From Frankiaceae bacterium (GTDB lineage: Bacteria > Actinomycetota > Actinomycetes > JAFAQI01): a stretch of DNA of 64,000 nt. Numbering within the stretch: the stretch's first letter is position 1; each line of letters starts with the position of its first letter. Positions 19,912-38,547 of this stretch are shown here, one piece after another. Position numbers and translations under genes: made by a program. The notes beneath the pieces were generated by a model, which was not told the origin of the DNA, did no database searches, and saw nothing but the letters and a program-made list of their open reading frames with translations. Where the stretch lies: contig JAFAZI010000047.1 of NCBI GenBank assembly GCA_019239875.1, positions 39,870 through 103,869 on the forward strand. Direction: 5' to 3'.

Positions 19912-19982
19912 CGATCCCCCGAGACGGCGAGGCCACCGGAGCGCATGTGCTCGCCCCAGCGGCCTCGCCTTGTCCGAATCGG

Positions 19983-21294: not shown

Positions 21295-22161
21295 TCACGA
21301 CCGCCGCCGGAGTGCAAGACCGCCGCCACCGAGGGCGAGCATGGCGATGATGAGGACGACCGTCAGATTGCGGCCGGTGTGCGAGGACGAGGCACTGGCG
21401 TCACTGACCGGCCGAGCTCCAGCCGGCGCCTGCGGCGAGTCAGCAGTGGACGAGCTGTCTCCGTTCCCAGAGCTGGCGGTCGACCCACCAGATGTGGAGG
21501 GTCGCGGCGAGCCGGCCGCGACCGCCGCGTCGTACTTTCGTTGCGCCTGGCGGAACTTCTTCTTCGGAAGGGTGGCGGTCTCGATGGATACCGCCGATCC
21601 GGAACCCTTGCAGTCATCCGCACCGGGATGCAGCTGGGTCCACCTGCCGTCGCTGACCGAGAAGTACGACGCGTTGTACGTCGATCGGAGGGCGGGGGCG
21701 CCTGGCGCGCCCAGATACATCCGGACCTGGAAGACGCCTTCGGCCGCGAGCGGGAAGTCCTTCAGATATGTCGCAAATGACTCGTCGAGGATCGTACCCG
21801 CGGCCATCGGATGGTCAGCATCCGAGAACCGCGCCGAGCCCGTGAGCTGCTGCGGGCTCCACTCCGGCGGCGGCACGTTGGGGCGCGGTTGGAACGCGTA
21901 CAACGTCGCGGTCCCACCGACCCGATAGCCCTTTGGTGCGGACGCCGCGCCGATCGCGCGGTAGATCGCCGGCTTGGTCGCCAACGAACCGCTGGTGACC
22001 TGATTGCCCTGGCCGTCACAGAGAGTGAGCGGGCCGGCGACTTGCGGGTCGGGCGGCGGCGTCACGCCGGCAATCGCTGGCGCCGCCAACCCCACCGCAA
22101 TCCCCACACTGACCGCGACAGTCGCAGCTCCCGATGAGAGGCCTCGGACCAACAACCTCAC
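21295..22161 (-). CDS. secreted surface protein, paralog B (two-Trp N-terminal domain; C-terminal TM anchor + RRRS)
   Basis: GTG 22161 (RBS AAGGAGA, overlaps upstream stop as GTGA); signal peptide VRLLVRGLSSGAATVAVSVGIAVGLAAPAIA; AGPLTLCDGQGNQVTSGSLATKP...EWSPQQ...FQVRMYL...DGRWTQLHPG; C-terminus SSSHTGRNLTVVLIIAMLALGGGGLALRRRS. Confidence 0.6.
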   Translation of the reverse strand: MRLLVRGLSSGAATVAVSVGIAVGLAAPAIAGVTPPPDPQVAGPLTLCDGQGNQVTSGSLATKPAIYRAIGAASAPKGYRVGGTATLYAFQPRPNVPPPEWSPQQLTGSARFSDADHPMAAGTILDESFATYLKDFPLAAEGVFQVRMYLGAPGAPALRSTYNASYFSVSDGRWTQLHPGADDCKGSGSAVSIETATLPKKKFRQAQRKYDAAVAAGSPRPSTSGGSTASSGNGDSSSTADSPQAPAGARPVSDASASSSHTGRNLTVVLIIAMLALGGGGLALRRRS

Positions 22162-23243
22162 GCGGGATCTCCTTGCGGCTGGGTCGCGGGTGGCGGGTCG
22201 ATCCGGTGCCGCCCCGCCTGGCGGCGATGTTTCCGCCACCAGTACCTGAAAGCCAACCCGACGATGAGGAGCAGGAGGATAAGGAGCAAGAGCCAAGGGA
22301 TGGCCAAGAAATGAACGCTGGATGAAGTGGGCTTCAAGCCGGTGTCGACCGCTCCCTGCAACCCTTCCGGGTTGACCGTGACCTTGGCGTTCATCAGCAG
22401 CTCTGGGTACACGTTCGGCACGGTGACGACAACGGGATACGACGCACCAGGCAGCAACGGGGGAATGCTCGCGACCGCCCCGCTGCTGACGTCCTCCCCG
22501 AACAGTCCGTGGACTGACACGGATTGCGGACCGCCGAAGACGACGTTCCCGCCGTTGTGGACCACGTAGCTGACCTTCACGTCACCGCGCGCGAACGGAT
22601 TGACCGGTCCGTCGTACGACGCCGTCAAGTTCCGGATGTCGACTCGAGGGTGGATCGGACCGGTCACGCGGAACACCGCGCGGACGGCGATGCGCTGCAG
22701 GAACTTCTCGTTCTGCGTGCTGCCCTGCCCGAACCGGCCTTTGACCTTGCCGGCGAGCGAGACCACGACGCCTCCGACATGGTCGCCCGGTGGCGCGTTC
22801 ATCGGGATGTGGACGTGTACCGGCAGGACGTTGACCGACCGCGGCTGCAGCGTGAGCACCCCACGACCGTGCGGGGTCCCCACCGACATCCAGGCACCGG
22901 CGTCCCGTCGCTTGACGTCGGGCAGCGGGAAGGAGATCGCGCCTCTGGTGTCAGGGACCGCGTCGACGGTGTACGTCGTCACCCGCAGCGGACGGTGGGA
23001 GTAGTTGGTGATCGCGACGTGGTCGGTCGTCTGGCCGCCGGGCGTGGTGTTGAACGTCAGGTACGGCCGGCCGTCGGGCCCCTTCGCACTCGACGGTGCG
23101 GCGCCGAAGGTCGCGTTCTTCACCTTGGTCGGTGACGAAGAAAAACGATGCCCCACGGGTCCGGCCGACGCTGCCGTCAGGCCTCCCATGAGCATCGTCA
23201 GTACGACGAGCGCAACCGATCGTCTGTAGTGCTTCAGTCCCAT
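22158..23243 (-). CDS. cell-surface protein with signal peptide and C-terminal TM anchor (possible CscA/DUF916-DUF3324-like)
   Basis: 361 aa; MGLKHYRRSVALVVLTMLMGGLTAASA signal; C-terminus LAIPWLLLLILLLLIVGLAFRYWWRKHRRQ. Size, architecture and neighbourhood (WxL-like paralogs, sorting-signal protein) resemble Gram-positive csc clusters. The family name is inferred, not demonstrated. Confidence 0.4.
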   Translation of the reverse strand: MGLKHYRRSVALVVLTMLMGGLTAASAGPVGHRFSSSPTKVKNATFGAAPSSAKGPDGRPYLTFNTTPGGQTTDHVAITNYSHRPLRVTTYTVDAVPDTRGAISFPLPDVKRRDAGAWMSVGTPHGRGVLTLQPRSVNVLPVHVHIPMNAPPGDHVGGVVVSLAGKVKGRFGQGSTQNEKFLQRIAVRAVFRVTGPIHPRVDIRNLTASYDGPVNPFARGDVKVSYVVHNGGNVVFGGPQSVSVHGLFGEDVSSGAVASIPPLLPGASYPVVVTVPNVYPELLMNAKVTVNPEGLQGAVDTGLKPTSSSVHFLAIPWLLLLILLLLIVGLAFRYWWRKHRRQAGRHRIDPPPATQPQGDPA

Positions 23244-23323: not shown

Positions 23324-25186
23324 TCAGTTCCCGTCTGAGACGGTGAAGACGATCGTGCCCTTGTAGGTGCCAGCAGCCGTCGACGTCGGTGCGTTGAGCG
23401 TCAGCTTGCCGTCGTAGGTAGCGGTACCGACGCCGTTCGCCGAACCCTGCAGCACGTTGTGGGCTCCGTTGCCGAGACCCGCGTTGCCGGTGTCGGACGG
23501 TGACACACCAGCAGCGGCCGTGTTGTCGGTCGCCGTGATCGAGCCAGGCTCGCCGGTGTAGCTGTTGACCGGAGTCGACCCGTCGGGGCAAGTGCCGGTC
23601 GACGGCGCGAGCGCCGTCAGGCCGACGTTCTCACCGTTGATCGACGTGTACGCACCGCTCGGCGGCGTCGGGCCACCAGACTGGAGCGACAGCGCACTGG
23701 CCGCAGCCTGCGCGATGAAGCCCGTGTTGACACCACTCGTGTCGGTCACCGTGATGCACTTGAACGTCTTGTTCCCGGTCCACAGGGTGCCGGTTCCGTT
23801 CAATGCGAGGTTGCCCAGGTCGAGCGGGTTCGCGTCCGTGTACGGGGTGCTGATGATCAGCGTTCCGGTCGGGATGCTTGCCGTGATCGTCTGGGTGTCC
23901 GTGCACCCCGGACCGCCCGCCGCCGCCTCGCTGGTGCAGACACCACCGGCGAGGACCGTGGTGAACGAGTTCGGCGCAGAGGCCGAGGCCTCGTAGTTCG
24001 CCGGGTTCGTCGGAGTGAAGTGAGCAACCACGGTGTGCGAACCGGCCGAGAAGCCACCGGTGATGGTCGCCGAGTAGTGACCGCTGCCGTCAACAGCAAC
24101 ACTCGAGCCGCCGTCGACTGGGAGTGCGGAACCCTTGTCCGTGAACGACACCGAGCCGTTCGGCGTGCCCGACCCTGAGGTCACGGCACCCGAGAGCGTT
24201 GCGGTTCCACCGGTCTGGGTGTTACCCGTGATCGTCAATGAGGTGTTGGTCGGGGTGGCCGGCGGGTTCACCGTCTGAGAGAGGGCGTTCGAGGTCGAGC
24301 CCGTGTAGTACGGGAAGACGGTGTTCGCGCTCGGGGTGTAGACGGCGGTGATGCTGTACGGCGAGCCCGACGCGGTCAGAGCTGACGTTGAGACCGACGC
24401 GTGGCCGGTGCCGTTCAGCGACTGTGCCGCACCAAGGTTGGCAGCGCCGTTCTTGAACTGCACGGTGCCGTCGGTCGGGTTGGTGCCGTCCGCGCCCGTC
24501 ACCTGCGTGGTGAAGGTCACCGAGTTGCCCTGGTTGGACGGGTTCGCCGACGAGGTCGGGGTCGAGGTGGTGGTCGCGATCGGCGAGCCGTAAACCTCGG
24601 TCCAGTCACCGCCGGTGACTGCGCCGCTGCCGTCCTTGGTGATGTTGCTGACCATGATGTCCGCGGCCCAGTACGTCCCCGTCGTGCCGGTCTTGACGCG
24701 GATCTGGTAGAGCCCGGCGTACCCGTCAGTGGTGCTGGTGTCGGTGTTCGGGAAGTCGCCGATGTACGTGGACAGCGGCAGGTCGGATCCAGCCCCGGTG
24801 ACGACCGGGTGGGTGCCCAGACCGTTCACCGGCGCGGGGGCGCTGGTGTTCGGGTAAGTGGTCGAGGCCGCTGCCTGCTCACCGCCCCAGGCACCTGGCG
24901 CGACACCAATCTGCGGCGTGTAGAAGAACTGCGTGGCCTTGGTGTGGCCGGCGTCAGTAGTAGAGGCCGCGTAGTAGGCCGCGAGCGGTCCGTCGGTGAC
25001 GTGACCGTGCGTGACTTGCTGGCCGCTCGAGTTGTAGAGGGTCAGCGTTCCGACCTGATTCGAGTCGGGGGTCGACTGGTACGGTGGCGTCGCTGCGTTG
25101 GCAGCACCCGCTCCCACCAGCAGCAACGCCCCGGTCGTGGCCAGGGTTGCCGCCCCGGCTGTGACCGCTGCGAAGCGGATCTTCAT
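23324..25186 (-). CDS. secreted surface protein, paralog A (two-Trp N-terminal domain + long Thr/Gly/Ser-rich Ig-like repeats)
   Basis: 620 aa; strong RBS AAGGGAGAA before ATG 25186; signal MKIRFAAVTAGAATLATTGALLLVGAGAANA; QVGTLTLYNSSGQQVTHGHVTD...GAWGGEQ...YQIRVKT...GGDWTEVY; C-terminal ...AGTYKGTIVFTVSDGN. Confidence 0.65.
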   Translation of the reverse strand: MKIRFAAVTAGAATLATTGALLLVGAGAANAATPPYQSTPDSNQVGTLTLYNSSGQQVTHGHVTDGPLAAYYAASTTDAGHTKATQFFYTPQIGVAPGAWGGEQAAASTTYPNTSAPAPVNGLGTHPVVTGAGSDLPLSTYIGDFPNTDTSTTDGYAGLYQIRVKTGTTGTYWAADIMVSNITKDGSGAVTGGDWTEVYGSPIATTTSTPTSSANPSNQGNSVTFTTQVTGADGTNPTDGTVQFKNGAANLGAAQSLNGTGHASVSTSALTASGSPYSITAVYTPSANTVFPYYTGSTSNALSQTVNPPATPTNTSLTITGNTQTGGTATLSGAVTSGSGTPNGSVSFTDKGSALPVDGGSSVAVDGSGHYSATITGGFSAGSHTVVAHFTPTNPANYEASASAPNSFTTVLAGGVCTSEAAAGGPGCTDTQTITASIPTGTLIISTPYTDANPLDLGNLALNGTGTLWTGNKTFKCITVTDTSGVNTGFIAQAAASALSLQSGGPTPPSGAYTSINGENVGLTALAPSTGTCPDGSTPVNSYTGEPGSITATDNTAAAGVSPSDTGNAGLGNGAHNVLQGSANGVGTATYDGKLTLNAPTSTAAGTYKGTIVFTVSDGN

Positions 25187-25321: not shown

Positions 25322-26500
25322 TCAGCAGCTGGTCGGGTTCAAGCCACAGTCCTTGTACGCGGGGTCCGCACCTGCCGCCGCGACGAGCGCTTGGCCCGGA
25401 GCGGTCTTGAAGTACGGGTTCGCGCCCGAGAACAAGGTCTGGATCATGTTCTTCGTGCCGCCCGGCTCGAAGATGGTCGACGAGGACAGGTCGCTCTGCT
25501 TGAACACCACGAACAGGCCGCGCGTGTCGATGTACGCGGATCCACCGGCCGGCGGAGCGCCGCTGAGGATCTTGATGCCGGCGGCCAACGCTGCGCCGCC
25601 GGGGTACGGCGTCGCAGGGTTGTGGAAGTAGCTGCTGTCGTAGAGGTTGAGCCGGCTTCCGGAGAACGGCGCGATGGCGTCCGCCGGCGTACCGAAGTTG
25701 CCACTCGTGATTGCGGACGGGTCGTTCTCCTCAGCGGTCTGCACGCAGCTGCCGAGGGTGATCGTGCCGCCGCCGGCGGTCTGCAGGTCGGTGATGAAGG
25801 TGCTGCGCGTACCCGAACCCGACTGCGGAATGATCGGCACGATGTTCGTGGCCGACGTGCCGCCGATGTTGGAGTCGTTCCACTTCCGGTAGCCCGCGTC
25901 GCACTGGTAGACGTGGAAGAGCTGCGCTGCCGTCAGCGGTACCGCGTTCGACCCCGTCTTGAGCGCTGCGAGGCGAAGGTCCTCGGTGCCGAGCCGCACG
26001 ACATGAAGCCCACCGAAACCAGCCGTGCCGGCGGTGGTCTCCTCGGCCGCAGTTGGGAGCCGCGAAGCGCGGACGAAGTTGATCTGTCCATCAGGGAACG
26101 CGGCGGTCGGCGCGTCATTCAGCAGCGCCGCGATGCCCGCACCGGAGCCGTTGGGACGCTGCACCGGGTTGGTGCCGGACCGCAGCACGATCGTGGGGTT
26201 GAGAGGTGCGAGGGAGGCGTTAGTGCTGCCGTTCAGGTAGCCCGCCCGAGCGTTGGCATCCGGCGTGGCATCGAAGCTCACCAGCTTGTTGATGGCGCCG
26301 CCGCCATTGAAGCCGAGGTCGCCCGTAGCGTCACCGTCGGCGCCGAAGTCGACGAGGTACTGCACCGTGTCGGACCCGACGCCCACTGCGTCGGCGCCCG
26401 AAGGTGCGTAGTCCGCGTGGGCCGGGGAGGCGAGTGAGACGCTCACCGCTCCCGCGACCGCGACTGCGAGACCGACTCGCAGCGAATTCTTCATGCGCAT
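25322..26500 (-). CDS. secreted PstS-family phosphate-binding protein (second copy)
   Basis: Signal peptide MRMKNSLRVGLAVAVAGAVSVSLASPAHA; type-2 periplasmic-binding fold with the phosphate-binding SGSGTR motif (IIPQSGSGTRSTFITDL). Confidence 0.65.
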   Translation of the reverse strand: MRMKNSLRVGLAVAVAGAVSVSLASPAHADYAPSGADAVGVGSDTVQYLVDFGADGDATGDLGFNGGGAINKLVSFDATPDANARAGYLNGSTNASLAPLNPTIVLRSGTNPVQRPNGSGAGIAALLNDAPTAAFPDGQINFVRASRLPTAAEETTAGTAGFGGLHVVRLGTEDLRLAALKTGSNAVPLTAAQLFHVYQCDAGYRKWNDSNIGGTSATNIVPIIPQSGSGTRSTFITDLQTAGGGTITLGSCVQTAEENDPSAITSGNFGTPADAIAPFSGSRLNLYDSSYFHNPATPYPGGAALAAGIKILSGAPPAGGSAYIDTRGLFVVFKQSDLSSSTIFEPGGTKNMIQTLFSGANPYFKTAPGQALVAAAGADPAYKDCGLNPTSC

Positions 26501-26565: not shown

Positions 26566-26587
26566 GCTAGTGCGTAGCGAATGAACC
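26566..26587 (-). promoter_or_regulatory. candidate PHO box (PhoP direct repeats GTTCACCGGGG/GTTCATTCGCT)
   Basis: Minus strand reads ...GACAAGTTCACCGGGGGTTCATTCGCTACGC... about 66-88 nt upstream of the PstS-like ATG: two 11-nt direct-repeat units with the actinobacterial PhoP core GTTCAyy. Confidence 0.5.
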
Positions 26588-26674
26588 CCCGGTGAACTTG
26601 TCGTGGCGGACACATCGAAACCGGACAAGGACGTCGAACCGGCGGACCGCTCCCGCACGCCCGGAAGGACGGCG

Positions 26675-27658
26675 TCACATCAGATTTGGGAGCAGCCTGA
26701 ACACGTTGCTGCTGACCACCCAGACCAACGCGAGAATCACGGGCGCTCCCGCAAGCCACGCCTGCCACAGACCCCACCGGCTGCTGGCCCAGACCGTTGC
26801 CCCGCCCACGATCAGCAACGCCTGAAGCCAGAGCACGAGCGACTCGAGACCGGATGTGTCGGAGTGCATCGCGGTGGCGGATGGCGCGATCACCGTCGGC
26901 CGGCCGGCTGGCGCGAGCAACGCCTTCTCCTTGAGCGCCGCATCCACGAAGACTTCGTGACTCGGTGCCCACCCGGCCCGCCAGCCGGAACCTTGGGATG
27001 AGACCAGGGTCAAGCGGCCGCCGCCATCCGGCACCGGCGGCGGCAGGGGGTCCCCGTTGTGCCTGACGTTTATGACGCTGTAGTGGAAGGTGCCCTGCTG
27101 CGTAGTCGCCGTGATGATGTCGCCCGGATGCAACGATCCGATGTCCTTGAAGGGTGCACCGAAGCTCACGCTTCGGCCCATGAGAACCGACCACCCAAGC
27201 TGACCCGGCAGCGGAGTGTTCTGCTGATGACCGGGACCGTCCCGAAGCACGGTCGACGTCGTGCCTTCCACGACGACCGCCCGGTTGAGCCCAGCCGCAG
27301 GCATGCTGATCACAGCTAATGGCGTGCCCGGTTTGATAGCACCCCCGAGCGGCGCGACCTCCTGCGCGAGCGAGAAGCGCAGCTGCGAGTAGAGCCTGTG
27401 CTGGGCGCTGCGCTCCTGAATACCGCTGAGGAACACGCCGTAGATCAGCAGCCAGACCGCGGTCACGCTCAGCATGAACAGCACGCTGACCGTGAGCGAA
27501 ACACCCGGCGAGGCCGGCGGGAGCGGTGGCGCCTCGCGGGCGGCGGCGAACCGAGTCCGGACCCGTGCGAGTCGCGACGCCGCGGCGGGCTCCGCTCGCC
27601 GCGCGCCGGACCGGGCAGGGGCCGGTCGACCAGGTTTTGCGAGGTCCGTAGCGGTCAT
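26675..27658 (-). CDS. sortase-fold membrane protein lacking catalytic Cys and His (class-E-sortase-like pseudo-sortase)
   Basis: N-terminal TM (VSLTVSVLFMLSVTAVWLLIYGVFL). The region IKPGTPLAVISMPAAGLNRAVVVEGTTSTVLRDGPGHQQNTPLPGQLGWSVLMGRSVSFGAPFKDIGSLHPGDIITATTQQGTFHYSV...RLTLVSSQGSG is collinear with the sortase-E consensus (IPxIGv..VveGt...LxkGpGHypxTxlPGqxGNsviaGHRTTyGAPFxxLdxLxxGDxI...TyxY...LTLvTCHP). The GHRTT His is replaced by Arg and the TLxTC Cys by Ser; the protein contains no Cys at all. Two extra C-terminal TM segments. ATG overlaps the upstream stop (ATGA). Confidence 0.6.
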   Translation of the reverse strand: MTATDLAKPGRPAPARSGARRAEPAAASRLARVRTRFAAAREAPPLPPASPGVSLTVSVLFMLSVTAVWLLIYGVFLSGIQERSAQHRLYSQLRFSLAQEVAPLGGAIKPGTPLAVISMPAAGLNRAVVVEGTTSTVLRDGPGHQQNTPLPGQLGWSVLMGRSVSFGAPFKDIGSLHPGDIITATTQQGTFHYSVINVRHNGDPLPPPVPDGGGRLTLVSSQGSGWRAGWAPSHEVFVDAALKEKALLAPAGRPTVIAPSATAMHSDTSGLESLVLWLQALLIVGGATVWASSRWGLWQAWLAGAPVILALVWVVSSNVFRLLPNLM

Positions 27659-30381
27659 GTCCTGCGTCGCTGGCGCACGTACCTGGTGATCGCCGGCGCC
27701 AACAAGCCGCTGAGGAGCGCAAGAGCGAGGAGGATGGGGAGCGCGACGCCGGCAAGCTTCGAGGAGCTCGCGACCGTGTTGCCCAGCGACGCCGGCGCTG
27801 GGGAGGCGACAGCAGGAGGGCTTGCTGGATCGCTGGGGCCTGGGGTGGCGGCGCCGTCGACTGCCGGCACAGTCGGAGCAGCCGACGACGGGGGCGACGA
27901 AGAGCTGCCCGTTCCATCTGGACCAGTGCCACCGTTGTTGCCGTCGTTCCCCTGGTTGTCGGCCTTCGACGGGACGAGCGATGGCACGTCACCACGCTGA
28001 GCTCGGACCGCGCTCGCCGCGCGCGTCGTGTACGCGACGAGCCGACCCAGTCCGTTCGACTTCGTCATCGGCAGATACCCAGGTGGCAAATTTCCTGGGT
28101 CGAAGCCCTGCGTCTGGCCGGGGCCGGCCGCGAAGTCGAGCAGCTTTGAGTAGTCCGTAGCGGCCGAGCTCGCAAGACCTTTGGTCGCAACGGTGGTGTA
28201 GACGATCATCGTGCCTGGATATGCGCCCTTCGCGGATGGTGCCTTGCGGAGCCGCTTCGAGTCGACGGGCCAGGTACCCGTCGTCATGTCCGGCTTCGCC
28301 GTGTCGGCAGCCGCCCGCATCGACGCCATCGTCGGCCGGACGAACGTGCGTCCGGCCAGGCTCGAGAAGTCGGACTTCGCGGCCGAGGTGGTCTGTGCCT
28401 CGAGTGACGCCATGCTGAGCCGATAGCGCTCAGCATCAGGAATGGTCGTCACGCCGAGCATGAACCGCGAGCCCAGCTGCTGGCGTCCGATGGCCACCAG
28501 CCGTTCACCCGAGCTCTGTCCCTGCAGCGGTTGGTAGCAGACGGTCTGCGAGTTCGCGATGGCGAACTGCATGGCCAGTGCGATCTGGCTCAGTCGCTGG
28601 ACCGGCGCTGCCACCAGCGGCAGGTATGGGACAGGGGTGTTGTAGAGGCAGTCGTTGAGTCCCGGCTGGTAGATGTCGGACGGAATGTATGTGTCGAGCA
28701 GCGGCCACGTGTTCACGGGGAGCTGGATGCGCTTGTAGGCCTTGTTGACCACCATCCCCCACGGGTCAGGTTTGCCGTCCAGCCATGCGCGAGCCTCGGG
28801 GTCGGCGTTGATGTAGGAGGTGAGGGCGTACATCACGTCTGACTGGCTGGAGAGGTTGAGGATCGTCGCACCGACTTGCGAGTCGGTGGTGACGCCGGGA
28901 TTGAGCGCCTCGAACTCTGGGTCGCGAGTGATGTTCAGCGGGTTCTTGGCAAGGGCCTTGTCCTTGTTCTGGATCTCGCTGATGGCCGGGTAGGACTCAG
29001 TCATCAGCTTCGCCAGCAACCGCGGATCGAGCTGGAGCTTGGTGACGGGGTCACCGTGAGCGTCGTCGATGTCGAAGGTGATCGCGAACCCGCTGACAGC
29101 GGTCGGCGCGTTGACCGTCGGGAACGGGAATCCCCCGGCCTGCGGCTGACTGGTGAAGGCTGCGTCGATCGAGCCCGACATCAGCTGAGTCCGAGCCTGC
29201 GGCTCGCCCACCTGAACGTGCTTGAAGTTGAACAGCGACTTCGTCAGGCAGAACTTCGGGGACCACTGTTGTGTGGCTTGCGTCATCAGCTCGGAGCCGT
29301 ACACGGGAACGGCCGCGCCCGCACCCACCACGTCGCAGACACTCGGCGTCTGCGCGAAGCTGAGTGGGACGGACAGCCGGTTCCGCCAGTTCGACGCGGC
29401 CCACCACAGCGCACCGCTCACCGTGGCGTCCTCGTGACCGTTCCCGTCACCAACCTCACCCGGTGCGAAGTGACCCTTCTTCACGCACTCGGCGGTGGCT
29501 TGCTCGATGTCGGGCGCTGGCGGCTTGTCGTCGTCCGGCAGCCCTTCGGCTGCGGGATCGCAGCTGATGCCCATGATCGGCACGGCGACCAGGCTGCACA
29601 CAACTCTTGCCGAGCAGCCCAATGACGTGTTCGTGTCCGCGGTCCACATGTCGAACTTCGTCGAACCCTGGCCGTTGGTCTGCGTGATGCCGTAGGTCTC
29701 GTTGCTCGGCATCGCCTGGTTGCTGTCACCGGTTGCCTCGGGCGCGGTGCCCGCGCAGCCGTTCGGCCCGCCGTAGTACTTGGTACCGCCAAGCGCGATG
29801 AAGGGGACCCAGTACTCCTCAGGCGCCGCGCCGAAACACTCCTCGGGCCTTGTTGTAGGCGCTCCGTACAGGGCGGATCGCTGTGCGGCCGAGGCGTACT
29901 TGTCCAGCCGCCACGGCGGGTAGGCCTGGTCGTTGCTCGCGTAGTTGGAATCGGACTGGAACCGCTCGGTGGTCGCGTTGGTCCAACAGGTCTGCGGCGA
30001 GAGTCGGTCGGCCTTGGGAGCGCGCTTCGAATCCAGGCCACGACACTCGAGCAGCACCATCGGATATTCCTCCTGCAGACCCAGGGAGGAGTTGATGTTT
30101 CCGACCAGACCGCCCGTCGGGTGCGCGCCGCTCCAGGACACGTCCACCTCTTGCCGATCGCGCAATCCCACCGTCTGAGCGACATGCAAGGAGACCTTGC
30201 GCTTGTCGACGACCGAGGTCGTGCCGTCCTTGGTTACGGTGCGGACAGCTGTGTGCTTGACGGTGACAGGCTTCAGATCGGCGTGCGATCGCCCGGGCGT
30301 TCCCGACGCGACACCTGTCGCAGCGGCGCCGACCGCCACCGCCGTCGCGGTGATAGCGGCCCAACGTTTTGTCAGTTTCAT
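27655..30381 (-). CDS. 909-aa secreted orphan protein, Cys-rich N-terminal region, C-terminal Ser/Pro-rich linker + TM anchor
   Basis: ATG 30381 overlaps the pstS stop (ATGA); signal peptide MKLTKRWAAITATAVAVGAAATGVASG; many paired Cys; C-terminus ...SSSPPSSAAPTVPAVDGAATPGPSDPASPPAVASPAPASLGNTVASSSKLAGVALPILLALALLSGLLAPAITRYVRQRRRT. No recognisable catalytic motif. Track ORF carries a 139-codon Arg-rich artefactual extension. Confidence 0.55.
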   Translation of the reverse strand: MKLTKRWAAITATAVAVGAAATGVASGTPGRSHADLKPVTVKHTAVRTVTKDGTTSVVDKRKVSLHVAQTVGLRDRQEVDVSWSGAHPTGGLVGNINSSLGLQEEYPMVLLECRGLDSKRAPKADRLSPQTCWTNATTERFQSDSNYASNDQAYPPWRLDKYASAAQRSALYGAPTTRPEECFGAAPEEYWVPFIALGGTKYYGGPNGCAGTAPEATGDSNQAMPSNETYGITQTNGQGSTKFDMWTADTNTSLGCSARVVCSLVAVPIMGISCDPAAEGLPDDDKPPAPDIEQATAECVKKGHFAPGEVGDGNGHEDATVSGALWWAASNWRNRLSVPLSFAQTPSVCDVVGAGAAVPVYGSELMTQATQQWSPKFCLTKSLFNFKHVQVGEPQARTQLMSGSIDAAFTSQPQAGGFPFPTVNAPTAVSGFAITFDIDDAHGDPVTKLQLDPRLLAKLMTESYPAISEIQNKDKALAKNPLNITRDPEFEALNPGVTTDSQVGATILNLSSQSDVMYALTSYINADPEARAWLDGKPDPWGMVVNKAYKRIQLPVNTWPLLDTYIPSDIYQPGLNDCLYNTPVPYLPLVAAPVQRLSQIALAMQFAIANSQTVCYQPLQGQSSGERLVAIGRQQLGSRFMLGVTTIPDAERYRLSMASLEAQTTSAAKSDFSSLAGRTFVRPTMASMRAAADTAKPDMTTGTWPVDSKRLRKAPSAKGAYPGTMIVYTTVATKGLASSAATDYSKLLDFAAGPGQTQGFDPGNLPPGYLPMTKSNGLGRLVAYTTRAASAVRAQRGDVPSLVPSKADNQGNDGNNGGTGPDGTGSSSSPPSSAAPTVPAVDGAATPGPSDPASPPAVASPAPASLGNTVASSSKLAGVALPILLALALLSGLLAPAITRYVRQRRRT

Positions 30382-32057
30382 ATCGAGTCCTTGGGCGGCG
30401 CGGTCCGCAGCCGGCGCGCCAGCATCGGCGGCCCAATCAGAATCAGCAGGAACAGAATCCCCGCCAGTGGCCCGAGCACGTCGGTGTTCTGCGAGGTTGG
30501 GATCTCGGTCGGTTGGGCCACGATGTTGGAGGTGTCCGTCGTCGTTCCACCCGGCGTGGTGTTGGTCGGGTTGGTCGGGTCGGCCACCTGACCCGGGTTC
30601 GTCGGATCGGTCTGCCCGCCGCCCCCTCCGGGAGTGGTCGGATTCGCGCCGCCGCCAGGATTGGTCGGGTTGGCACCACCACCGCCGCCGCCGGTGCCGC
30701 CGCCGTTTCCACCTCCGCCATTGCCGCCGTGGCCGCCGCCACCACTCGTCCCCGGGTCGCCGGCGTCGGTGCACGGGCCGGCACCAGCTTTGTCGCACGC
30801 CGGCGGCTTCGGTGCGATCTGCGCCAGGTGGTTGCCCTTCGGGTCACCCGGCACGAACGTGGGGTTGTGGCAGCTGTTGACGTTGCGCTTGGTGAGGTCA
30901 ACGCCGGAGTCGGCGGTCTTGAGCTCCGCAATCTGTTTGAAACCTGCCTGGACCAGGTTGACCGGGAGCGGTGAGTAGCCGATCGGGCCCATCTCGGTCT
31001 GCCCCGTGCAGATGGAGTAGAAGTCGAAGTCAGCGAGTGTCTGCCGTTTCGCCGTCGTCATGGTCTTGTCGTTCGACGCGATCGGAATGACTTGATAGGA
31101 GTACGACGACAGCGGGTAGGTGCGGACGTCCTTGTCGACGTACACGTTGTCGAGGTCCTGGAGCAGGTAGTCCTTCGAGTTCTTGTCGTAGTTGATCTTT
31201 GCCTTGAGCAGTGCGACGGCGACGTTGTACTGCGTGGGAAGCGTGAAGTAACCGGCCTTGTTCTCGATCTTCGCGACCGGGTAGTCCTTGCCCAAGGCGT
31301 AGGAGTACTCGTCGTAGCCGATGGCACCGTTGGCGGCCTTGGACGTGACGAAGTTCATCACGCCGTCGGAGCCATTCTGGGCGACCGCGTTCTTCACCTT
31401 CGATGCCGGAAAATACTCGGTGAGCTCGTCCAGGCCGTTGCCGTTCTGGTCCTTGTTGATAGAGGTCCACTCGTTCGGGAACTCGGTCGCGAGATAGCGC
31501 GTGAACTGTGCCGTCGAGCCCGAGCCCTCGGAGTGAACAACCGGAATGATCGGGATCGAGGGGAACTTGCGCCCGTTGTTGTCGGCGGTGATCTGTGGCG
31601 CGTTCCAGTTCGTGATCTTGCCGGTGAAGATTCCCGCCAACGTGGCCCCGGAGAGCCGGAGGTTGCGAACCAGCTGGCCCGCGACCTGGAGCTGGTACGG
31701 GAATGACGTACCGCCTGCGACGATCGGTAGATACGCGTACCCGCGTCCATCTGGTGAGTCGTCCGCGTTGGTGGCCGGATCCCGACCTTGGAACCCGATG
31801 TCGGTCACTGCGAAGTCGTTCTGCCGATTCGCGAAGTCCTTGCGGCCCTGCGCCGAACCGCTCGACGTGAAGACGACCTGCAGACCTTGTGATTGGACGT
31901 CCGCGATCCACTGGTTCACGGCGTTGGCACTCCAGCTCGAACCCGAGCCGGCGATCAACGCATGGCTGCCAGCCGCCTGGGCGGGTGTCGTCGCGCCGAT
32001 CGCCAGGCCGGCGACGGCGAGCGCCGCCAGGGCACGCCAGAAGGGGTTTCGCGTCAT
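30378..32057 (-). CDS. pstS: phosphate ABC transporter substrate-binding protein with C-terminal Gly-rich linker and TM anchor
   Basis: Non-lipoprotein signal peptide MTRNPFWRALAALAVAGLAIGATTPAQA|AGS; PstS fold with IIPVVHSEGSGSTAQFTRYL (SGSGT motif); C-terminus GGGGHGGNGGGGNGGGTGGGGGGANPTNPGGGANPTTPGGGGG...LGPLAGILFLLILIGPPMLARRLRTAPPKDSI; ATG overlaps the pstA stop (ATGA). Confidence 0.8.
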   Translation of the reverse strand: MTRNPFWRALAALAVAGLAIGATTPAQAAGSHALIAGSGSSWSANAVNQWIADVQSQGLQVVFTSSGSAQGRKDFANRQNDFAVTDIGFQGRDPATNADDSPDGRGYAYLPIVAGGTSFPYQLQVAGQLVRNLRLSGATLAGIFTGKITNWNAPQITADNNGRKFPSIPIIPVVHSEGSGSTAQFTRYLATEFPNEWTSINKDQNGNGLDELTEYFPASKVKNAVAQNGSDGVMNFVTSKAANGAIGYDEYSYALGKDYPVAKIENKAGYFTLPTQYNVAVALLKAKINYDKNSKDYLLQDLDNVYVDKDVRTYPLSSYSYQVIPIASNDKTMTTAKRQTLADFDFYSICTGQTEMGPIGYSPLPVNLVQAGFKQIAELKTADSGVDLTKRNVNSCHNPTFVPGDPKGNHLAQIAPKPPACDKAGAGPCTDAGDPGTSGGGGHGGNGGGGNGGGTGGGGGGANPTNPGGGANPTTPGGGGGQTDPTNPGQVADPTNPTNTTPGGTTTDTSNIVAQPTEIPTSQNTDVLGPLAGILFLLILIGPPMLARRLRTAPPKDSI

Positions 32058-33169
32058 CGCTTGGTCTTCTCCCGAGAGAGCAGTCGAGCCGCGATGAACA
32101 GGACGACGACGAGCACGAGCAGGACGCTGGCAGCGCCAAAACCTCGAGTGATGTACGTCGGTTCACCGCTGCGGACAGAGCTGAAGATGAACAACGGAAG
32201 CGAGTTCATCGGATTCTTGAGGGGGTTCGTGTTGAAGAAGGTGGAGGCGCCCGAGGTGATCAGAACGGGTGCGGTTTCACCGACAGCTCGGGCGAGGCCG
32301 AGGATCACTGCAGTCGCGAGTCCGGACCGCGCGGTCGGAAGCACGACGCGCCAGACCGTTGCCCATCGGCTGGCGCCAAGCGCAAGACTCGCTTCACGGA
32401 GACCGCCCGCCACCACCCGCAGCGAGACATCCGCCGAGCGGGCGATGATCGGCAGCATCATGATCGACAGCGCCATCGCCGCGCAGAAGCCGTTGCGCTG
32501 AAAGCCGAGCCCGAGCTGCAACACCGTGTAGATGAACAGCCCAGCGAGGATGTCCGGCAGCGCTGTCATCGCCTCCACGACGGTTCGCACCACCGTCGAG
32601 AACCGGCCACCGATCTCCACCATGTAGATCGCGGTTCCAATGCCGAGTGGCAAAGAGACTGCGGTGGCGATCGCAAGCTCGATCAGCGACCCCGCCACCG
32701 CATGCGTGATGCCACCGTGGGTGAGGGTCTCCGTCGGACCGACCCCCGCCATGTCATGGGTCCAGAAGTTGCCGTGGATCCATGCACCCTCGCCCTTGAC
32801 GAGGGTGTAGATCGCTACCGAGAGGACCGCGAAGAACACCACGCCTGCTGCGCCTGCGACGGCGGCGCCCCAGAGCCGGTCGACCACCACCGGGCGAGGG
32901 TTGCCGAAGCTGCTGACCAGGCCGTACACAGCAAGGAACGCGGCGTACCAGCAGAAGAGGAAGCCAACCTTCCCGGACAGCGGCAGCAGCTGGAAGTACA
33001 CGAGCCAGGTGAGCGCCAGCGAGCCGACGAAAGCGGCAACCAGTGATGCGATGTCGTCCTGCGTCAACCGGCCGACGGTGCGGGGCTGGTCGTCTGCACC
33101 ATCCGGATGGCTCGGGTTGACGCCCGTGCCCGATGTACCCGGCATCGGCGGCGGCGAGAGCAGTGTCAT
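32054..33169 (-). CDS. pstA: phosphate ABC transporter permease PstA
   Basis: 371 aa, 6 TM; ABC permease EAA-like region (LGASRWATVWRVVLPTARSGLATAVILGLARAVGETAPVL). Confidence 0.85.
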   Translation of the reverse strand: MTLLSPPPMPGTSGTGVNPSHPDGADDQPRTVGRLTQDDIASLVAAFVGSLALTWLVYFQLLPLSGKVGFLFCWYAAFLAVYGLVSSFGNPRPVVVDRLWGAAVAGAAGVVFFAVLSVAIYTLVKGEGAWIHGNFWTHDMAGVGPTETLTHGGITHAVAGSLIELAIATAVSLPLGIGTAIYMVEIGGRFSTVVRTVVEAMTALPDILAGLFIYTVLQLGLGFQRNGFCAAMALSIMMLPIIARSADVSLRVVAGGLREASLALGASRWATVWRVVLPTARSGLATAVILGLARAVGETAPVLITSGASTFFNTNPLKNPMNSLPLFIFSSVRSGEPTYITRGFGAASVLLVLVVVLFIAARLLSREKTKR

Positions 33170-33176
33170 GACGGCA

Positions 33177-34196
33177 TCACGCGTCCGTCTGCGCGCCGCT
33201 GCGGCTGCGGTTGACGATTATCGCGGCAACGGTGTTCACGGCGATCGTCATGACGAACAGGACGAAGCCGGCCGCGAGCAGAGCTGACAGCTGCGACGAA
33301 GACGCGTCGTTGAACTGGTTCGCGATCAGCGACGCGACGGTGATGCCACCGATCTCGAGCGGCTTGAACTTCAGGTCGTACTCCGGCGAGATGATCAGGA
33401 GCACGGCCACCGTCTCGCCCAGCGCACGGCCGAGCGCAAGCATCGTCCCGCCGATGATGCCGCCGCGACCGAACGGCAGCACGACGGACCGGATCATCCC
33501 CCAGCGCGTCGAGCCGAGGGCGTAGGCAGCCTCACGTTCCCCGATCGGCGCCTGCGCGAAGACGCCACGCATGACAGCGCAGGCCATCGGGATGACCATC
33601 ATCGAGACGATCAACGCCGCGATGAACGGCGAACTGACGTAGTTGTGCGCCGAGAAGGCCGCGGCCCGCGGGTCCGTGTCGACCTTCAGGAACGGCACCC
33701 AACCGAAGTAGGAGTTGATCCAGCGGGCGACGTACAGCGCATGCGGTGAGATCAGCAGCAAGCCCCACAGGCCATAGATGATGCTCGGCACCGCAGCCAT
33801 CAGGTCGACGAGGGCGACCAGCGTCCCCTTGAGCCAGTTCGGCGCGTACTCGCTGATGTAGACGGCGGTGCCGAGAGCAAGCGGGAACGAGATCGCCAGC
33901 GCGATCACGGCGATCTCGATCGTGCCGACGACGACACCTGAGATCCCCAGCAGGTTCTGCTCGGGGTTCCACACCGCCCGGGTGAAGAAACCCAGCCCGT
34001 AGTTGTGGAGCGTCGGGATCAGCTGATACCCGAGGAACAGCCCGATGGCACCGGTGATGACGAGTACGACGGCACCAACCCCTGTGGCGCTCACCTGAAA
34101 GACCCGGTCGGAGCCTCCGATGCCGGAGCCGAGCGAACGAGGTTTGTCGTCGTCCGGCAGAGGTGACGCCGGCGAGACGTCGGCTACTGCGGTCAT
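33177..34196 (-). CDS. pstC: phosphate ABC transporter permease PstC
   Basis: 339 aa; (YALGSTRWGMIRSVVLPFGRGGIIGGTMLALGRALGETVAVLLI). Confidence 0.85.
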   Translation of the reverse strand: MTAVADVSPASPLPDDDKPRSLGSGIGGSDRVFQVSATGVGAVVLVITGAIGLFLGYQLIPTLHNYGLGFFTRAVWNPEQNLLGISGVVVGTIEIAVIALAISFPLALGTAVYISEYAPNWLKGTLVALVDLMAAVPSIIYGLWGLLLISPHALYVARWINSYFGWVPFLKVDTDPRAAAFSAHNYVSSPFIAALIVSMMVIPMACAVMRGVFAQAPIGEREAAYALGSTRWGMIRSVVLPFGRGGIIGGTMLALGRALGETVAVLLIISPEYDLKFKPLEIGGITVASLIANQFNDASSSQLSALLAAGFVLFVMTIAVNTVAAIIVNRSRSGAQTDA

Positions 34197-34211
34197 TCCT
34201 GATGGGTCCCG

Positions 34212-35060
34212 CTACCCGAACCGGCCGTTGACGTAGTCCGAGGTCCGCTGGTCGCGCGGCCGCTCGAAGATGTCTCGGGTCGGGCCGGACTCGACGATCA
34301 CGCCCGGGGTCCCTTGCTCCGCGAGGAAGAAGGCGCACTGCTGGGAGACCCGTGCGGCCTGCTGCATGTTGTGGGTGACGATGACGATGGTGACCTGGTC
34401 GCGAAGCATCGCGATGGTCTCTTCGATCCGCCGCGTGGAGGTCGGGTCGAGCGCCGAGCACGGCTCGTCCATCAGCAGGACGTCCGGACTGACCGCGAGC
34501 GAGCGCGCGATGCACAGCCGCTGCTGCTGTCCACCTGACAGCGCGCCGCCAGGGCGGTCGAGCCGGTCCTTGACCTCTGCCCACAGCCCACCCCGCTGTA
34601 GACAGTCCTCGATCAGTGCCTCCTTGGCACTTCGGCTGACCTTCGCGCCGGTCAGTTTCAGTCCGGCGACCACGTTCTCGGCGATGCTCATCGCGGGAAA
34701 CGGGTTCGGCTTCTGAAAGACCATGCCGATGCGCTTGCGGGTCTCGGTGATCCGCTGGCCGGGCGCGTAGATGTCTTGACCGTTGAGCTGGACCTCGCCG
34801 GCGAGTTTCGCGCTCGGCACGGACTCGTGCATGCGGTTGAGGATCCGCAGGAACGTGGACTTGCCGCATCCGGACGGACCGATCAGCGCGCTCACCGTGC
34901 CGGGCGGCATCGACAGCGACACGCGGTCGAGGACCTTGTTGGTGCCGAACCATGCCGAGATGTTGACCGCGTCGAGCTGCGCGCCGGTCGGGTCTCGCTC
35001 CGGCTCGGGCTCCTCGAGCCGCGCCAGGTCGATGGTCGGCGGCGGGGCGATGGTCGTCAT
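34212..35060 (-). CDS. pstB: phosphate ABC transporter ATP-binding protein PstB
   Basis: Start at ATG 35060 (MTTIAPPPTIDLARLEEPE...); Walker A GPSGCGKST, signature LSGGQQQRLCIARSLAV, Walker B LLMDEP; track ORF 18 codons longer. Confidence 0.9.
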   Translation of the reverse strand: MTTIAPPPTIDLARLEEPEPERDPTGAQLDAVNISAWFGTNKVLDRVSLSMPPGTVSALIGPSGCGKSTFLRILNRMHESVPSAKLAGEVQLNGQDIYAPGQRITETRKRIGMVFQKPNPFPAMSIAENVVAGLKLTGAKVSRSAKEALIEDCLQRGGLWAEVKDRLDRPGGALSGGQQQRLCIARSLAVSPDVLLMDEPCSALDPTSTRRIEETIAMLRDQVTIVIVTHNMQQAARVSQQCAFFLAEQGTPGVIVESGPTRDIFERPRDQRTSDYVNGRFG

Positions 35061-35618: not shown

Positions 35619-35651
35619 GCAGGCCGAACGGCAGATGAGCGAAAGATGAAC
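35619..35651 (-). promoter_or_regulatory. candidate PHO box (three 11-nt direct-repeat units) upstream of the DUF1508-pstBCAS operon
   Basis: Minus strand TTGTTGTTCATCTTTC-GCTCATCTGCC-GTTCGGCCTGC, about 86 nt upstream of GTG 35533, in the divergent intergenic region shared with the alpha/beta hydrolase gene. Confidence 0.4.
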
Positions 35652-38467: not shown

Positions 38468-38547
38468 CCCGTGTAACGAGCCGGCTCGAGAAAGGATTCG
38501 CCTTCTATTGGGCGAAACCTCCTACACCCTCACTCGTTGGACGGTTC

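Follow-up and report, generated by a model that had tools for sequence, protein, structure and literature searches.

The gene at 27655–30381 of the window (the whole 64,000-nt stretch of DNA that was analysed) encodes a Sec-exported, C-terminally membrane-tethered surface protein that is a PstS paralogue in disguise and belongs to a large unnamed family restricted to Actinomycetota. Its residues ~351–800 have the PstS fold, and a rigid, disulfide-stapled, family-specific beta-sandwich domain precedes them. Judged from architecture and gene context, the protein would best be explained, tentatively and with somewhat less than even confidence, as a tethered receptor that is accessory to a specialised Pst-type importer, probably under Pho control, and not as an enzyme. 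Most phosphorus in soil is tied up in minerals and organic matter, from which soil Actinomycetota must obtain it; to our knowledge, how the high-affinity Pst system reaches substrates beyond the thick cell wall is poorly understood. What we describe here is a PstS fold whose pocket appears to have been conservedly changed from anion-binding to acidic, and whose gene is tightly joined to those of a Pst-type importer and of a sortase without catalytic activity.

The plus-strand translation of 27655–30381 was full of stops, and the open reading frame proved to lie on the minus strand with exactly the boundaries of the initial annotation, comprising 908 aa and a stop (Table 1). Its third-position GC (0.80) was typical of coding sequence in the window. 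The start ATG (30381–30379) shares nucleotides with the TGA (30380–30378) that ends the upstream 559-aa gene (ATGA), an AAGGA lies 6 nt before the ATG, and the stop codon runs into the start of the downstream gene (27658). The upstream overlap may mean that the two proteins are made stoichiometrically, as the initial annotation put forward. The upstream stop codon had been taken for that of pstS. The overlap stands, but the upstream product is PstS-like and not a textbook PstS: it scored 172.9 bits against the TIGR00975 cutoff of 205, has a C-terminal transmembrane (TM) anchor and carries His in place of Arg135. A longer, GTG-started open reading frame (to 30798) was rejected, as its extension is Arg-rich and runs out of frame across the upstream gene, and homologues begin at the signal peptide.

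Table 1 Coordinates of the gene, its parts and its neighbours in the window.
Feature	Position	Strand	Remarks
PHO-box-like pair of 11-nt direct repeats	35634..35651	minus	GTTCATCTTTC (GCTCATC...); upstream of operon
pstB, pstC and pstA	32054..35060	minus	pstB 34212–35060, pstC 33177–34196, pstA 32054–33169; same operon
PstS-like partner, 559 aa	30378..32057	minus	Signal peptide, PBP_like_2 domain, ~140-aa Gly/Pro/Thr-rich linker, C-terminal TM anchor
Whole gene	27655..30381	minus (30381->27655)	908 codons + stop; conserved actinobacterial family, ~850–1000 aa
Signal peptide region, aa 1 to ~34	30280..30381	minus	MKLTKR, then hydrophobic stretch; no lipobox Cys; read from sequence, homologue N-termini of same type
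Family-specific N-terminal domain, aa 36–350	29332..30276	minus	Beta-sandwich core, long loops with 9 of 12 invariant Cys
PstS-fold (type II periplasmic-binding-protein) domain, aa ~351–800	27982..29331	minus	Ligand pocket remodelled
~100-aa insertion in PstS-like domain, aa ~535–635	28477..28779	minus	Absent from PstS; unaligned block in hhalign; pLDDT 50–70
Ser/Pro/Ala/Gly-rich stalk, aa ~801–864	27790..27981	minus	Sequence varies among homologues; pLDDT below 40
Juxtamembrane motif SLGNT	27775..27789	minus	9–14 aa before TM helix; consensus [S/A]-L-G-x-T-x-G; G and T >=90% conserved
C-terminal TM helix (aa 876–898) and basic tail TRYVRQRRRT	27658..27756	minus	From sequence; family-conserved; predicted helix 876–907
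Pseudo-sortase, membrane-embedded sortase-fold protein	26675..27658	minus	Start overlaps target-gene stop; PF04203 covers only N-terminal part
Second PHO-box-like pair	26580..26597	minus	GTTCACCGGGG (GTTCATT...); 80–97 nt upstream of 392-aa PBP_like_2 gene after pseudo-sortase

The protein had been regarded as an orphan, which was not borne out, as 1052 homologues were recovered with E ≤ 1e-3. The family comprised 307 representative clusters, and all of the more than 1000 homologues came from Actinomycetota, including the cultured Nocardioides conyzicola and Solihabitans fulvus. Full-length identity was 48–69% among the homologues listed. We found no literature on the family, which has no name and whose N-terminal domain has no Pfam model.

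Pfam gave no match in the protein, phmmer and hmmsearch against the PDB gave none either, and TIGR00975 reached 16.7 bits, far from the 205-bit cutoff of this curated family. The sequence link to PstS came only from hhalign (E = 4.3e-5) and from six of 33 relatives (best E = 8e-6). The earlier statement that no motif could be assigned is right as regards Pfam but not for the C-terminal half, a domain with a two-lobed type II periplasmic-binding-protein fold of PstS topology. Compared to PstS of E. coli (1IXH), M. tuberculosis (PstS-1 and PstS-3) and cyanophage P-SSM2, the protein was only 14–17% identical, and it adds a 315-aa N-terminal domain and the ~100-aa insertion, which carries conserved C578 and C615 together with the motifs DPWGMVVN, WPLLD, NDCL and PVPYLPLVAAP. 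While actinobacterial PstS has a lipid anchor, this protein is held by a TM helix at its C-terminus, preceded by the Ser/Pro stalk.

The binding pocket also differs from that of PstS. The phosphate-ligand set of PstS was confirmed by the PhoX numbering (PMC5439949); of its eight ligands, five to six have been exchanged, with carboxylates at three of these positions. In the hhalign alignment, T10, S38, D56, R135, S139, G140 and T141 of PstS correspond to E364, E393, S411 (or a gap), L510, S514, D515 and V516, with only S139 of these seven kept. Across 203 members, T10 was replaced by Glu in 183, S38 by Glu in 185 or Asp in 18, and G140 by Asp in 202; R135 gave way to Leu, Ile, Val or Met in 198, and Arg never occurred at this position in the counts listed. 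The two members from cultured genomes had Val or Pro, not Glu, at position 364. Read from these alignments, the replacements are almost invariant, with two to three carboxylates (E364, E/D393 and D515) and a hydrophobic residue at the Arg135 position. E364, E393 and D515 would converge in the cleft, a placement taken from the alignment to PstS and not from measured distances. T724 is strictly conserved in the pocket, as is S514. Among the activities suggested initially, binding or capture came closest, given that the PstS fold makes up half of the protein, but the protein is not simply a second phosphate binder, because the phosphate ligands are replaced. The conservation of the acidic pocket argues that it is functional.

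Alternatively, the protein might itself be a genuine second substrate binder for this ABC importer, one that would take a different phosphorus compound with a positive charge (such as 2-aminoethylphosphonate, phosphoethanolamine, phosphocholine or a metal-phosphate complex) and dock on PstCA to deliver it for import. The PstS fold is intact in both lobes, the strict conservation of pocket residues (including S514 and T724) fits this idea, and the new carboxylates would suit an amine or a metal. With its overlaps, the gene belongs to the transporter operon and is presumably co-transcribed with it, and it is familiar from ABC importers that one transporter may draw on several binding proteins. 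We nevertheless consider this explanation somewhat unlikely. PstC (239.5 bits, cutoff 196) and PstA (200.6 bits, cutoff 193) score as orthodox phosphate permeases, with a pathway specialised for the anion, and PstB scored 333.9 bits, just under its cutoff of 343. The bulky N-terminal domain and the ~100-aa insertion may hinder docking, and an orthodox-looking binder is already encoded immediately upstream. That partner keeps the phosphate ligands S/T10, S38, D56, S139, G140 and S/T141, with Glu in place of D137 besides the change at R135; across nine loci, S/T10, D/E56 and G140 were kept in eight to nine, and S38, S139 and S/T141 in seven. Furthermore, we know of no PstS-family member that binds cationic phosphorus compounds or metal-phosphate.

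The features proposed earlier for the two ends of the protein were confirmed. The N-terminus has Lys/Arg followed by a hydrophobic, signal-like segment, and the Ser/Pro stalk, C-terminal TM helix and basic tail were read from the sequence at the positions in Table 1. The protein contains 12 Cys, each of them retained by no fewer than 197 of the 203 homologues, which supports the structural disulfides suspected in the Cys-rich N-terminal half. The N-terminal domain has the conserved motifs SWSGAHPTGG, QEEYP, LLECRG, TCWT, LGCS, VAVPIMGISCD and LWWSASNWRNR, and its core resembles Ig-, arrestin- and S-layer-type sandwiches, with only beta-sandwich proteins matched. The full-length model was of moderate confidence (pLDDT 70), with uncertain inter-domain geometry.

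The N-terminal domain also has invariant polar residues (H87, E105, E139, D160 and R168), which could in principle form the catalytic site of a secreted phosphate-releasing enzyme, such as an organophosphate esterase, phytase or nuclease. The position of the gene in a phosphate-uptake operon points the same way, as do the Phytase-like and PI-PLC genes that neighbour the operon in Solihabitans. However, neither Pfam nor NCBIfam matched the catalytic domain or fold of any secreted phosphoesterase considered (PhoA, PhoD, PhoX, phytases, GlpQ and nucleases), and we regard an enzymatic role as very unlikely. Of the phosphate-scavenging role put forward in the initial annotation, the link to phosphate acquisition is backed by context (the Pst-type importer operon, its synteny, the PHO-box-like repeats and the Solihabitans neighbours), whereas esterase or phytase activity is unsupported.

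The C-terminus (motif, TM helix and basic tail) is arranged like a sorting signal, and its juxtamembrane motif, [S/A]LGxTxG, is similar but not identical to the class E sorting motif LAxTG. It was present in 145 of 193 full-length members and absent or altered in ~25%. The adjacent downstream gene is annotated as class E sortase or sortase A by NCBI and JGI, and its product shares the fold of class E sortases (Streptomyces coelicolor SrtE1/SrtE2; PDB 5CUW and 5GO5), being closest to this class (64.7 bits). Unlike class E sortases, its family has no catalytic His and Cys and adds C-terminal TM helices. Alignment to PDB sortases showed GRS in place of GHR; among 120 homologues, the catalytic His position was occupied by Arg (103) or Lys (17), and the catalytic Cys position by Ser (64), Ala (38), Val (6), Thr (4), Leu (3) or Gly (2). 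Both residues were thus missing from these positions in all 120, of which 75 had no Cys at all, and no catalytically competent sortase (His-Cys-Arg) was found among these adjacent homologues. On the strength of these substitutions, the sortase annotation appears wrong, and the adjacent protein cannot be a Cys transpeptidase.

We also weighed the possibility that the protein is a sortase substrate, cleaved at its sorting signal by the adjacent sortase and linked covalently to peptidoglycan, and judged it extremely unlikely. A tripartite C-terminus with a conserved LGxT(x)G motif 9–14 aa before the TM helix would fit such a substrate, as would a sortase-family gene that is always adjacent and overlapping, and a housekeeping sortase elsewhere in the genome may act on it. 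Against this, transpeptidation is not expected of a pseudo-sortase family in which no member has the catalytic His and Cys, and the motif is neither LPXTG nor LAXTG. In addition, some pseudo-sortases are fused to their ‘substrate’, which sets them apart from class E sortase/substrate pairs. Two homologues are in-frame fusions of receptor, TM helix, cytoplasmic linker and pseudo-sortase with a consistent topology, and these natural fusions are incompatible with release of the C-terminus.

The target gene is on the same strand as pstC, pstA and pstB, with genes overlapping or adjacent, and this arrangement was kept in other genomes. Five gene-called loci in which both junctions could be read shared the order pstB/C/A, anchored PstS-like protein, target protein and sortase homologue, and 4-nt overlaps on both sides of the target gene were found in the window and in L004, L006, L008, L009 and L010. 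The synteny extended from Acidimicrobiia to Actinomycetes. Compared to known PstS systems, the operon thus has the order pstB-C-A-S*-X. The wider cluster included secreted proteins with Ig-like (Big_3_5) domains, an anchored DUF916/WxLIP_PGBD-like protein and another PBP_like_2 protein, a set that recurred in L004 and L006.

These neighbours raise the question of whether the protein is mainly a structural or adhesive component of a surface complex formed with them, its PstS-like domain serving only as a scaffold and its role not being specific to phosphate uptake. The sandwich-like core of the N-terminal domain is in line with this. However, the neighbours that never vary encode the ABC transporter, the PstS-like protein and the pseudo-sortase, while the Ig-like and DUF916 genes were missing beside the operon in L010 and lay in other positions elsewhere. 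A pure scaffold would also not be expected to conserve its pocket residues at nearly 100%, and we find this explanation doubtful, indeed quite unlikely. The WxL/Csc cell-surface clusters of Firmicutes encode DUF916/WxLIP proteins, anchored at the C-terminus, and secreted partners of these. The wider cluster resembles them in that its DUF916/WxLIP_PGBD-like protein ends in a TM anchor and is accompanied by several Ig-like proteins that are secreted. However, the DUF916 match was below threshold (25.9 bits vs 27.3), no WxL domain was detected, the DUF916 and Ig-like genes were not always beside the target gene, and the target protein has no counterpart in Csc clusters.

The favoured reading, in which the protein assists a specialised Pst-type importer that is probably under PhoP control, could work as follows. 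On its Ser/Pro stalk, the ectodomain would extend into or across the wall. The acidic pocket would bind a positively charged or metal-bridged ligand and not bare phosphate; candidates are metal-phosphate complexes, amino-organophosphates and cationic sites of minerals or wall polymers. The N-terminal domain may provide a second binding surface, and the tethered PstS-like neighbour would hand phosphate to PstCA/PstB. The pseudo-sortase might hold the LAxTG-like juxtamembrane segment and the TM helix without cleavage, keeping the receptor in the transporter complex; binding of the motif is speculative because not all members have it. A bolder version, which we consider unlikely, is a wall-spanning phosphorus-harvesting apparatus with two stalk-tethered PstS-derived receptors in tandem and a pseudoenzyme sortase as membrane holder of a degenerate sorting signal. 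One receptor, re-engineered with its acidic pocket and a new disulfide-rich domain, would capture phosphorus species that are cationic or bound to metal, or attach to the surface of minerals or the wall, and the other would pass orthophosphate to PstCAB. If true, such an apparatus would be previously undescribed in Actinomycetota and the first pairing of a pseudo-sortase with a pseudo-sorting signal. The accessory role, if true, would extend a textbook transporter by a new accessory component, illustrate how a binding protein can switch ligand class and place a pseudo-sortase in a functional context for the first time. As the operon is present in Nocardioides conyzicola and Solihabitans fulvus, the idea is directly testable in cultured strains.

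The actinobacterial PHO box consists of at least two direct 11-nt repeats with the consensus G(G/T)TCAYYYR(G/C)G near the promoter (PMC2275107). In related loci, PHO-like sites occurred only with one mismatch and at chance-level counts, and a crude test for enrichment outside coding sequence showed no significant effect (p = 0.33). In the window, two exact matches to GNTCAYY-N4-GNTCAYY were found compared to 0.12 expected, both on the coding strand and in the two promoter regions of the cluster.

The gene placed at 27655-30381 by the initial annotation is real, but it lies on the minus strand and comprises 908 codons plus a stop; the plus-strand reading was discarded because stops interrupt its translation throughout. 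The third-position GC of this gene, hereafter the target, was 0.80, a coding-type value. Its start overlaps the upstream gene, as had been claimed: the ATG (30381-30379) lies within an ATGA that shares the TGA of a gene for a 559-aa PstS-like protein (the partner), AAGGA is found 6 nt upstream of it, and the target stop in turn shares bases with the start of the gene that follows (27658). A longer ORF from GTG 30798 was rejected, as it formed an Arg-rich out-of-frame extension over the upstream gene and as the target homologues begin at the signal peptide. The protein features described earlier were recovered, including a signal-like N-terminus (Lys/Arg, then hydrophobic) without a lipobox, 12 cysteines (C578, C615 and ten within residues 113-378), a stalk rich in Ser/Pro/Ala/Gly (aa ~801-864), and a C-terminal TM helix (aa 876-898) with the basic tail TRYVRQRRRT. 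Each of the 12 cysteines was kept in 197-203 of the 203 aligned members, and this near-invariance is consistent with an extracytoplasmic protein that has six structural disulfides.

The target had been described as an orphan, but 1052 homologues at E<=1e-3 were found when 5.8 billion proteins were searched. Among the matches listed (120 of 1052), identities were 48-69% over near-full length, lengths were 850-960 aa, and the sources were Mycobacteriales, Frankiales, Frankiaceae and Acidimicrobiales MAGs; most of these homologues were named 'hypothetical' and a few 'ABC-type phosphate transport system substrate-binding protein'. No Pfam or NCBIfam models were found for the family or for its N-domain (aa 36-350), and literature searches yielded no paper on the family and nothing relevant on this gene combination, on pseudo-sortases or on degenerate PstS proteins. 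The family is large and uncharacterised, and in it two textbook folds have been put to unusual use.

The full-length protein was modelled with AlphaFold2 from a 33-sequence alignment (pLDDT 70, pTM 0.71), and the model was confident at residues ~350-800. For this PstS-like domain (aa ~351-800), the first 11 structural matches were all phosphate binders, with 290-311 residues aligned at 14-17% identity. Sequence support for a PstS fold was weak and agreed with the structural matches: TIGR00975 matched residues 672-759 weakly (E 0.003), PF12849 was matched in 6 of 33 relatives, and hhalign paired the C-terminal half of the family with residues 2-300 of PstS (E 4.3e-5), using a small alignment of four PstS sequences, one of them from E. 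coli. Comparisons by hhalign with the single partner sequence and with a single 392-aa PBP sequence were too weak alone, and PDB sequence searches with the target and with the 33-sequence profile gave nothing useful. The target clearly derives from PstS. In the hhalign alignment, its PstS-like domain carries a strongly conserved insertion of ~100 residues (aa ~535-635), which holds C578 and C615.

The N-domain has a beta-sandwich core with ~200 residues of disulfide-stapled elaborations, and Foldseek found no significant match for it in the PDB. With the N-terminal 315 residues as query, an exhaustive phmmer search of 1.84 billion representatives recovered 307 representative clusters, and in all of them the match was N-terminal in proteins of similar length, or the proteins were fragments; neither this search nor a 10-sequence profile found the N-domain in other architectures. 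The N-domain has no relatives outside the target family. It has no recognisable enzyme fold. The earlier statement that no motif could be assigned holds only in part, since the C-terminal half has a PstS fold; apart from this statement and the word 'orphan', the observation stands overall. The proposed phosphate-related role is borne out in part by gene context, but the enzymatic suggestions that came with it are unsupported, and a phosphoesterase is very unlikely.

Luecke and Quiocho are said to have found in 1990 that phosphate is held in E. coli PstS by Thr10, Phe11 (backbone), Ser38, Asp56, Arg135, Ser139, Gly140 and Thr141. The same set of phosphate ligands is obtained with PhoX numbering (+24) (PMC5439949). 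The target equivalents from hhalign are, in PstS order, E364, L365, E393, a gap or S411, L510, S514, D515 and V516. Across 203 members, residue 364 was Glu in 183, residue 393 was Glu in 185 and Asp in 18, residue 514 was Ser in 191, and residue 515 was Asp in 202. At residue 510, the counterpart of Arg135, 198 members had Leu, Ile, Val or Met, and Arg was absent from the counts listed. Judged from these alignments, the anion-binding site appears to have turned acidic under strong constraint, which counts against the binding of bare phosphate and equally against a decayed relic of a pocket; homology suggests that the acidic residues cluster within the cleft. Because the ligand set fails, the target falls outside PstS in a functional sense. 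That the target is a true alternative substrate-binding protein, whose substrate would be a charged organophosphate or metal-phosphate, is somewhat unlikely. The target is a conserved, exported and tethered two-domain protein with a PstS fold, an acidified conserved pocket and a novel N-domain.

The minus-strand gene order was a 157-aa ORF, pstB, pstC, pstA, the partner, the target and a 327-aa sortase-fold protein (the pseudo-sortase). The order of pstB, pstC, pstA and the pstS-like gene differs from the canonical pstS-C-A-B, and no phoU was seen adjoining the operon in the window. The 157-aa ORF had no Pfam or NCBIfam match; by eye, it has a W-R-L..N-R motif, which is also present in two tandem small ORFs before the ABC gene of the related locus L006 (4334-5252). 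The partner keeps S10, S38, D56, S139, G140 and S141, but His stands in place of Arg135 and Glu in place of Asp137. Both replacements are common to most orthologues; the second Nocardioides copy and Solihabitans keep Arg/Asp. It lacks a lipobox, scores below the TIGR00975 cutoff, and has a Gly/Pro/Thr-rich linker of ~140 residues followed by a C-terminal TM helix; it is plausibly the phosphate binder of the system.

Positions of features in the window and of core operon copies in two cultured genomes
Feature	Position (strand)	Remarks
157-aa ORF	35062-35533 (-)	stop overlaps pstB start (TGATG)
pstB	32054-35060 (-) block	top match TIGR00972, 333.9 bits, slightly below 343 cutoff
pstC	32054-35060 (-) block	239.5 bits, cutoff 196
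pstA	32054-35060 (-) block	200.6 bits, cutoff 193
Partner, 559 aa, PstS-like	30378-32057 (-)	matches solved PstS proteins, E 2e-22
Pseudo-sortase, 327 aa	26675-27658 (-)	sortase-fold membrane protein
Third PstS-family paralogue, 392 aa, PBP_like_2	25322-26500 (-)	secreted without anchor
Three paralogous secreted proteins	23324-25186, 21295-22296, 19983-21170 (-)	common N-terminal domain of ~150 aa
361-aa protein	22158-23243 (-)	sub-threshold DUF916/WxLIP_PGBD, 25.9 vs 27.3 bits; C-terminal TM helix and basic tail
ORF ending ...MPMTG, hydrophobic stretch, RRRK	19186-20175 (-)	LPXTG-like sorting signal; weak Big_7 match
599-aa ORF	36668-38467 (-)	called 5' end overlaps that of 1054-aa ORF head-to-head
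1054-aa ORF	38317-41481 (+)	called 5' end overlaps that of 599-aa ORF head-to-head
PHO-like pair GTTCATCTTTC GCTCATC	35651-35634 (-)	upstream of small ORF and pstB
PHO-like pair GTTCACCGGGG GTTCATT	26597-26580 (-)	80-97 nt upstream of 392-aa PBP gene
Core operon copies, N. conyzicola	L009 3426-10921 and 16087-20921	
Core operon, S. fulvus	L010 11633-16119	

The core block (ABC, two permeases, PstS-like, target and sortase-like genes), with 4-nt overlaps on both sides of the target, was found in an Acidimicrobiales MAG (L004), two metagenomic contigs (L006 and L008), Nocardioides conyzicola (L009) and Solihabitans fulvus (L010). Two long-read MAG loci (L003 and L007) had the identical order with fragmented upstream genes. 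The linkage of the target to a Pst-type importer, a ligand-competent tethered PstS-like protein and a pseudo-sortase is obligatory. Of the cultured genomes, that of N. conyzicola contains the core operon twice, in tandem, and that of S. fulvus once, with Phytase-like (PF13449) and PI-PLC-C1 genes flanking it.

The pseudo-sortase has a TM helix at its N-terminus and a hydrophobic region at its C-terminus, and the sortase match spans only the N-terminal two-thirds of the domain. Databases name it 'class E sortase' or 'sortase A'. A Frankiaceae MAG encodes a protein 100% identical to it, and this gives the taxonomic placement of the window. Compared with class E sortase structures, it has GRS at the catalytic GHR position. 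Among 120 homologues, the catalytic His position was Arg in 103 and Lys in 17, the catalytic Cys position was Ser (64), Ala (38), Val (6), Thr (4), Leu (3) or Gly (2), and 75 homologues had no cysteine at all; the family is a conserved one of pseudoenzymes. A sortase with a Ser nucleophile, prompted by five sequences with TLVTS for TLxTC, was rejected because Ser occupies the Cys position in only 64 of the 120, Ala in 38, and Arg or Lys invariably replaces the His. In 145 of 193 target members, an [S/A]-L-G-x-T-x-G motif (SLGNT in the window), resembling the class E sorting signal LAxTG, precedes the TM helix by 9-14 residues. Two homologues from outside the window (P0049 and P0055) are in-frame fusions of ~1210 aa with a consistent topology, in which the receptor and its TM helix are joined by a basic cytoplasmic linker to the TM helix and domain of the sortase-like part. 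The dead catalytic positions, the juxtamembrane motif and the fusions suggest a former sortase-substrate pair that is now a permanent, non-cleaving membrane complex. That the target is still a sortase substrate, cleaved and wall-linked, has the motif in its favour and the lost catalytic residues against it, and is highly improbable.

Our tentative reading is that the target is an accessory receptor in a specialised phosphate-acquisition system. It would act alongside the tethered PstS-like protein that supplies PstCAB, would recognise not free phosphate but either a ligand that is cationic or metal-bridged or a surface, and would be kept within the complex by the pseudo-sortase. Cultured Nocardioides and Solihabitans make this idea testable.

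In Actinobacteria, the PHO box is built of 11-nt direct repeats that follow the consensus G(G/T)TCAYYYR(G/C)G (PMC2275107). The 64-kb window contains two exact matches to GNTCAYY-N4-GNTCAYY, where chance would give 0.12; they lie on the cluster's coding strand, one in each of its promoter regions, and such sites make phosphate control plausible in this genome. One-mismatch PHO-like sites occupied comparable intergenic positions in related loci (L001 13741, L006 16857 and 19082, L009 15948), where their counts were at chance level. Across loci, enrichment of PHO-like sites in the non-coding fraction was not significant (p=0.33, with a crude coding mask that left 35% 'non-coding'), so no conservation of the sites is claimed. 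A one-mismatch run of three PHO-like repeats was also seen at 22299-22327 (-), just upstream of a 333-aa gene.

After a short intergenic gap past the pseudo-sortase, the cluster continues with the 392-aa PBP_like_2 protein, with Big_3_5 proteins and with an anchored protein of DUF916/WxLIP-like type. Beside such neighbours, the target could be a chiefly structural or adhesive surface component, which we regard as improbable. The 392-aa paralogue keeps the SGT motif, differs from PstS at other ligand positions and has its own PHO-like site upstream.

The N-terminal domain of the three paralogous secreted proteins has the pattern PPWE...GTL.LYD..G..VT.G..., and two of them contain Big_3_5 Ig domains. 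The 620-aa one of the three ends in a conserved 'DG.LTL.APTST..G.Y......FT' segment, possibly a WxL-like module, which was also found in L004 and L006. No family match was obtained for the 599-aa ORF, and the 1054-aa ORF had a weak sub-threshold match to the neutral/alkaline ceramidase N-terminus (27.7 vs 32.1 bits). The 361-aa protein adjoins Big_3_5 genes in L004, L006 and L008 too, a neighbourhood reminiscent of Firmicute Csc/WxL surface clusters, and a 1051-aa Big_3_5 protein in L006 has a canonical LPNTG signal at its end.
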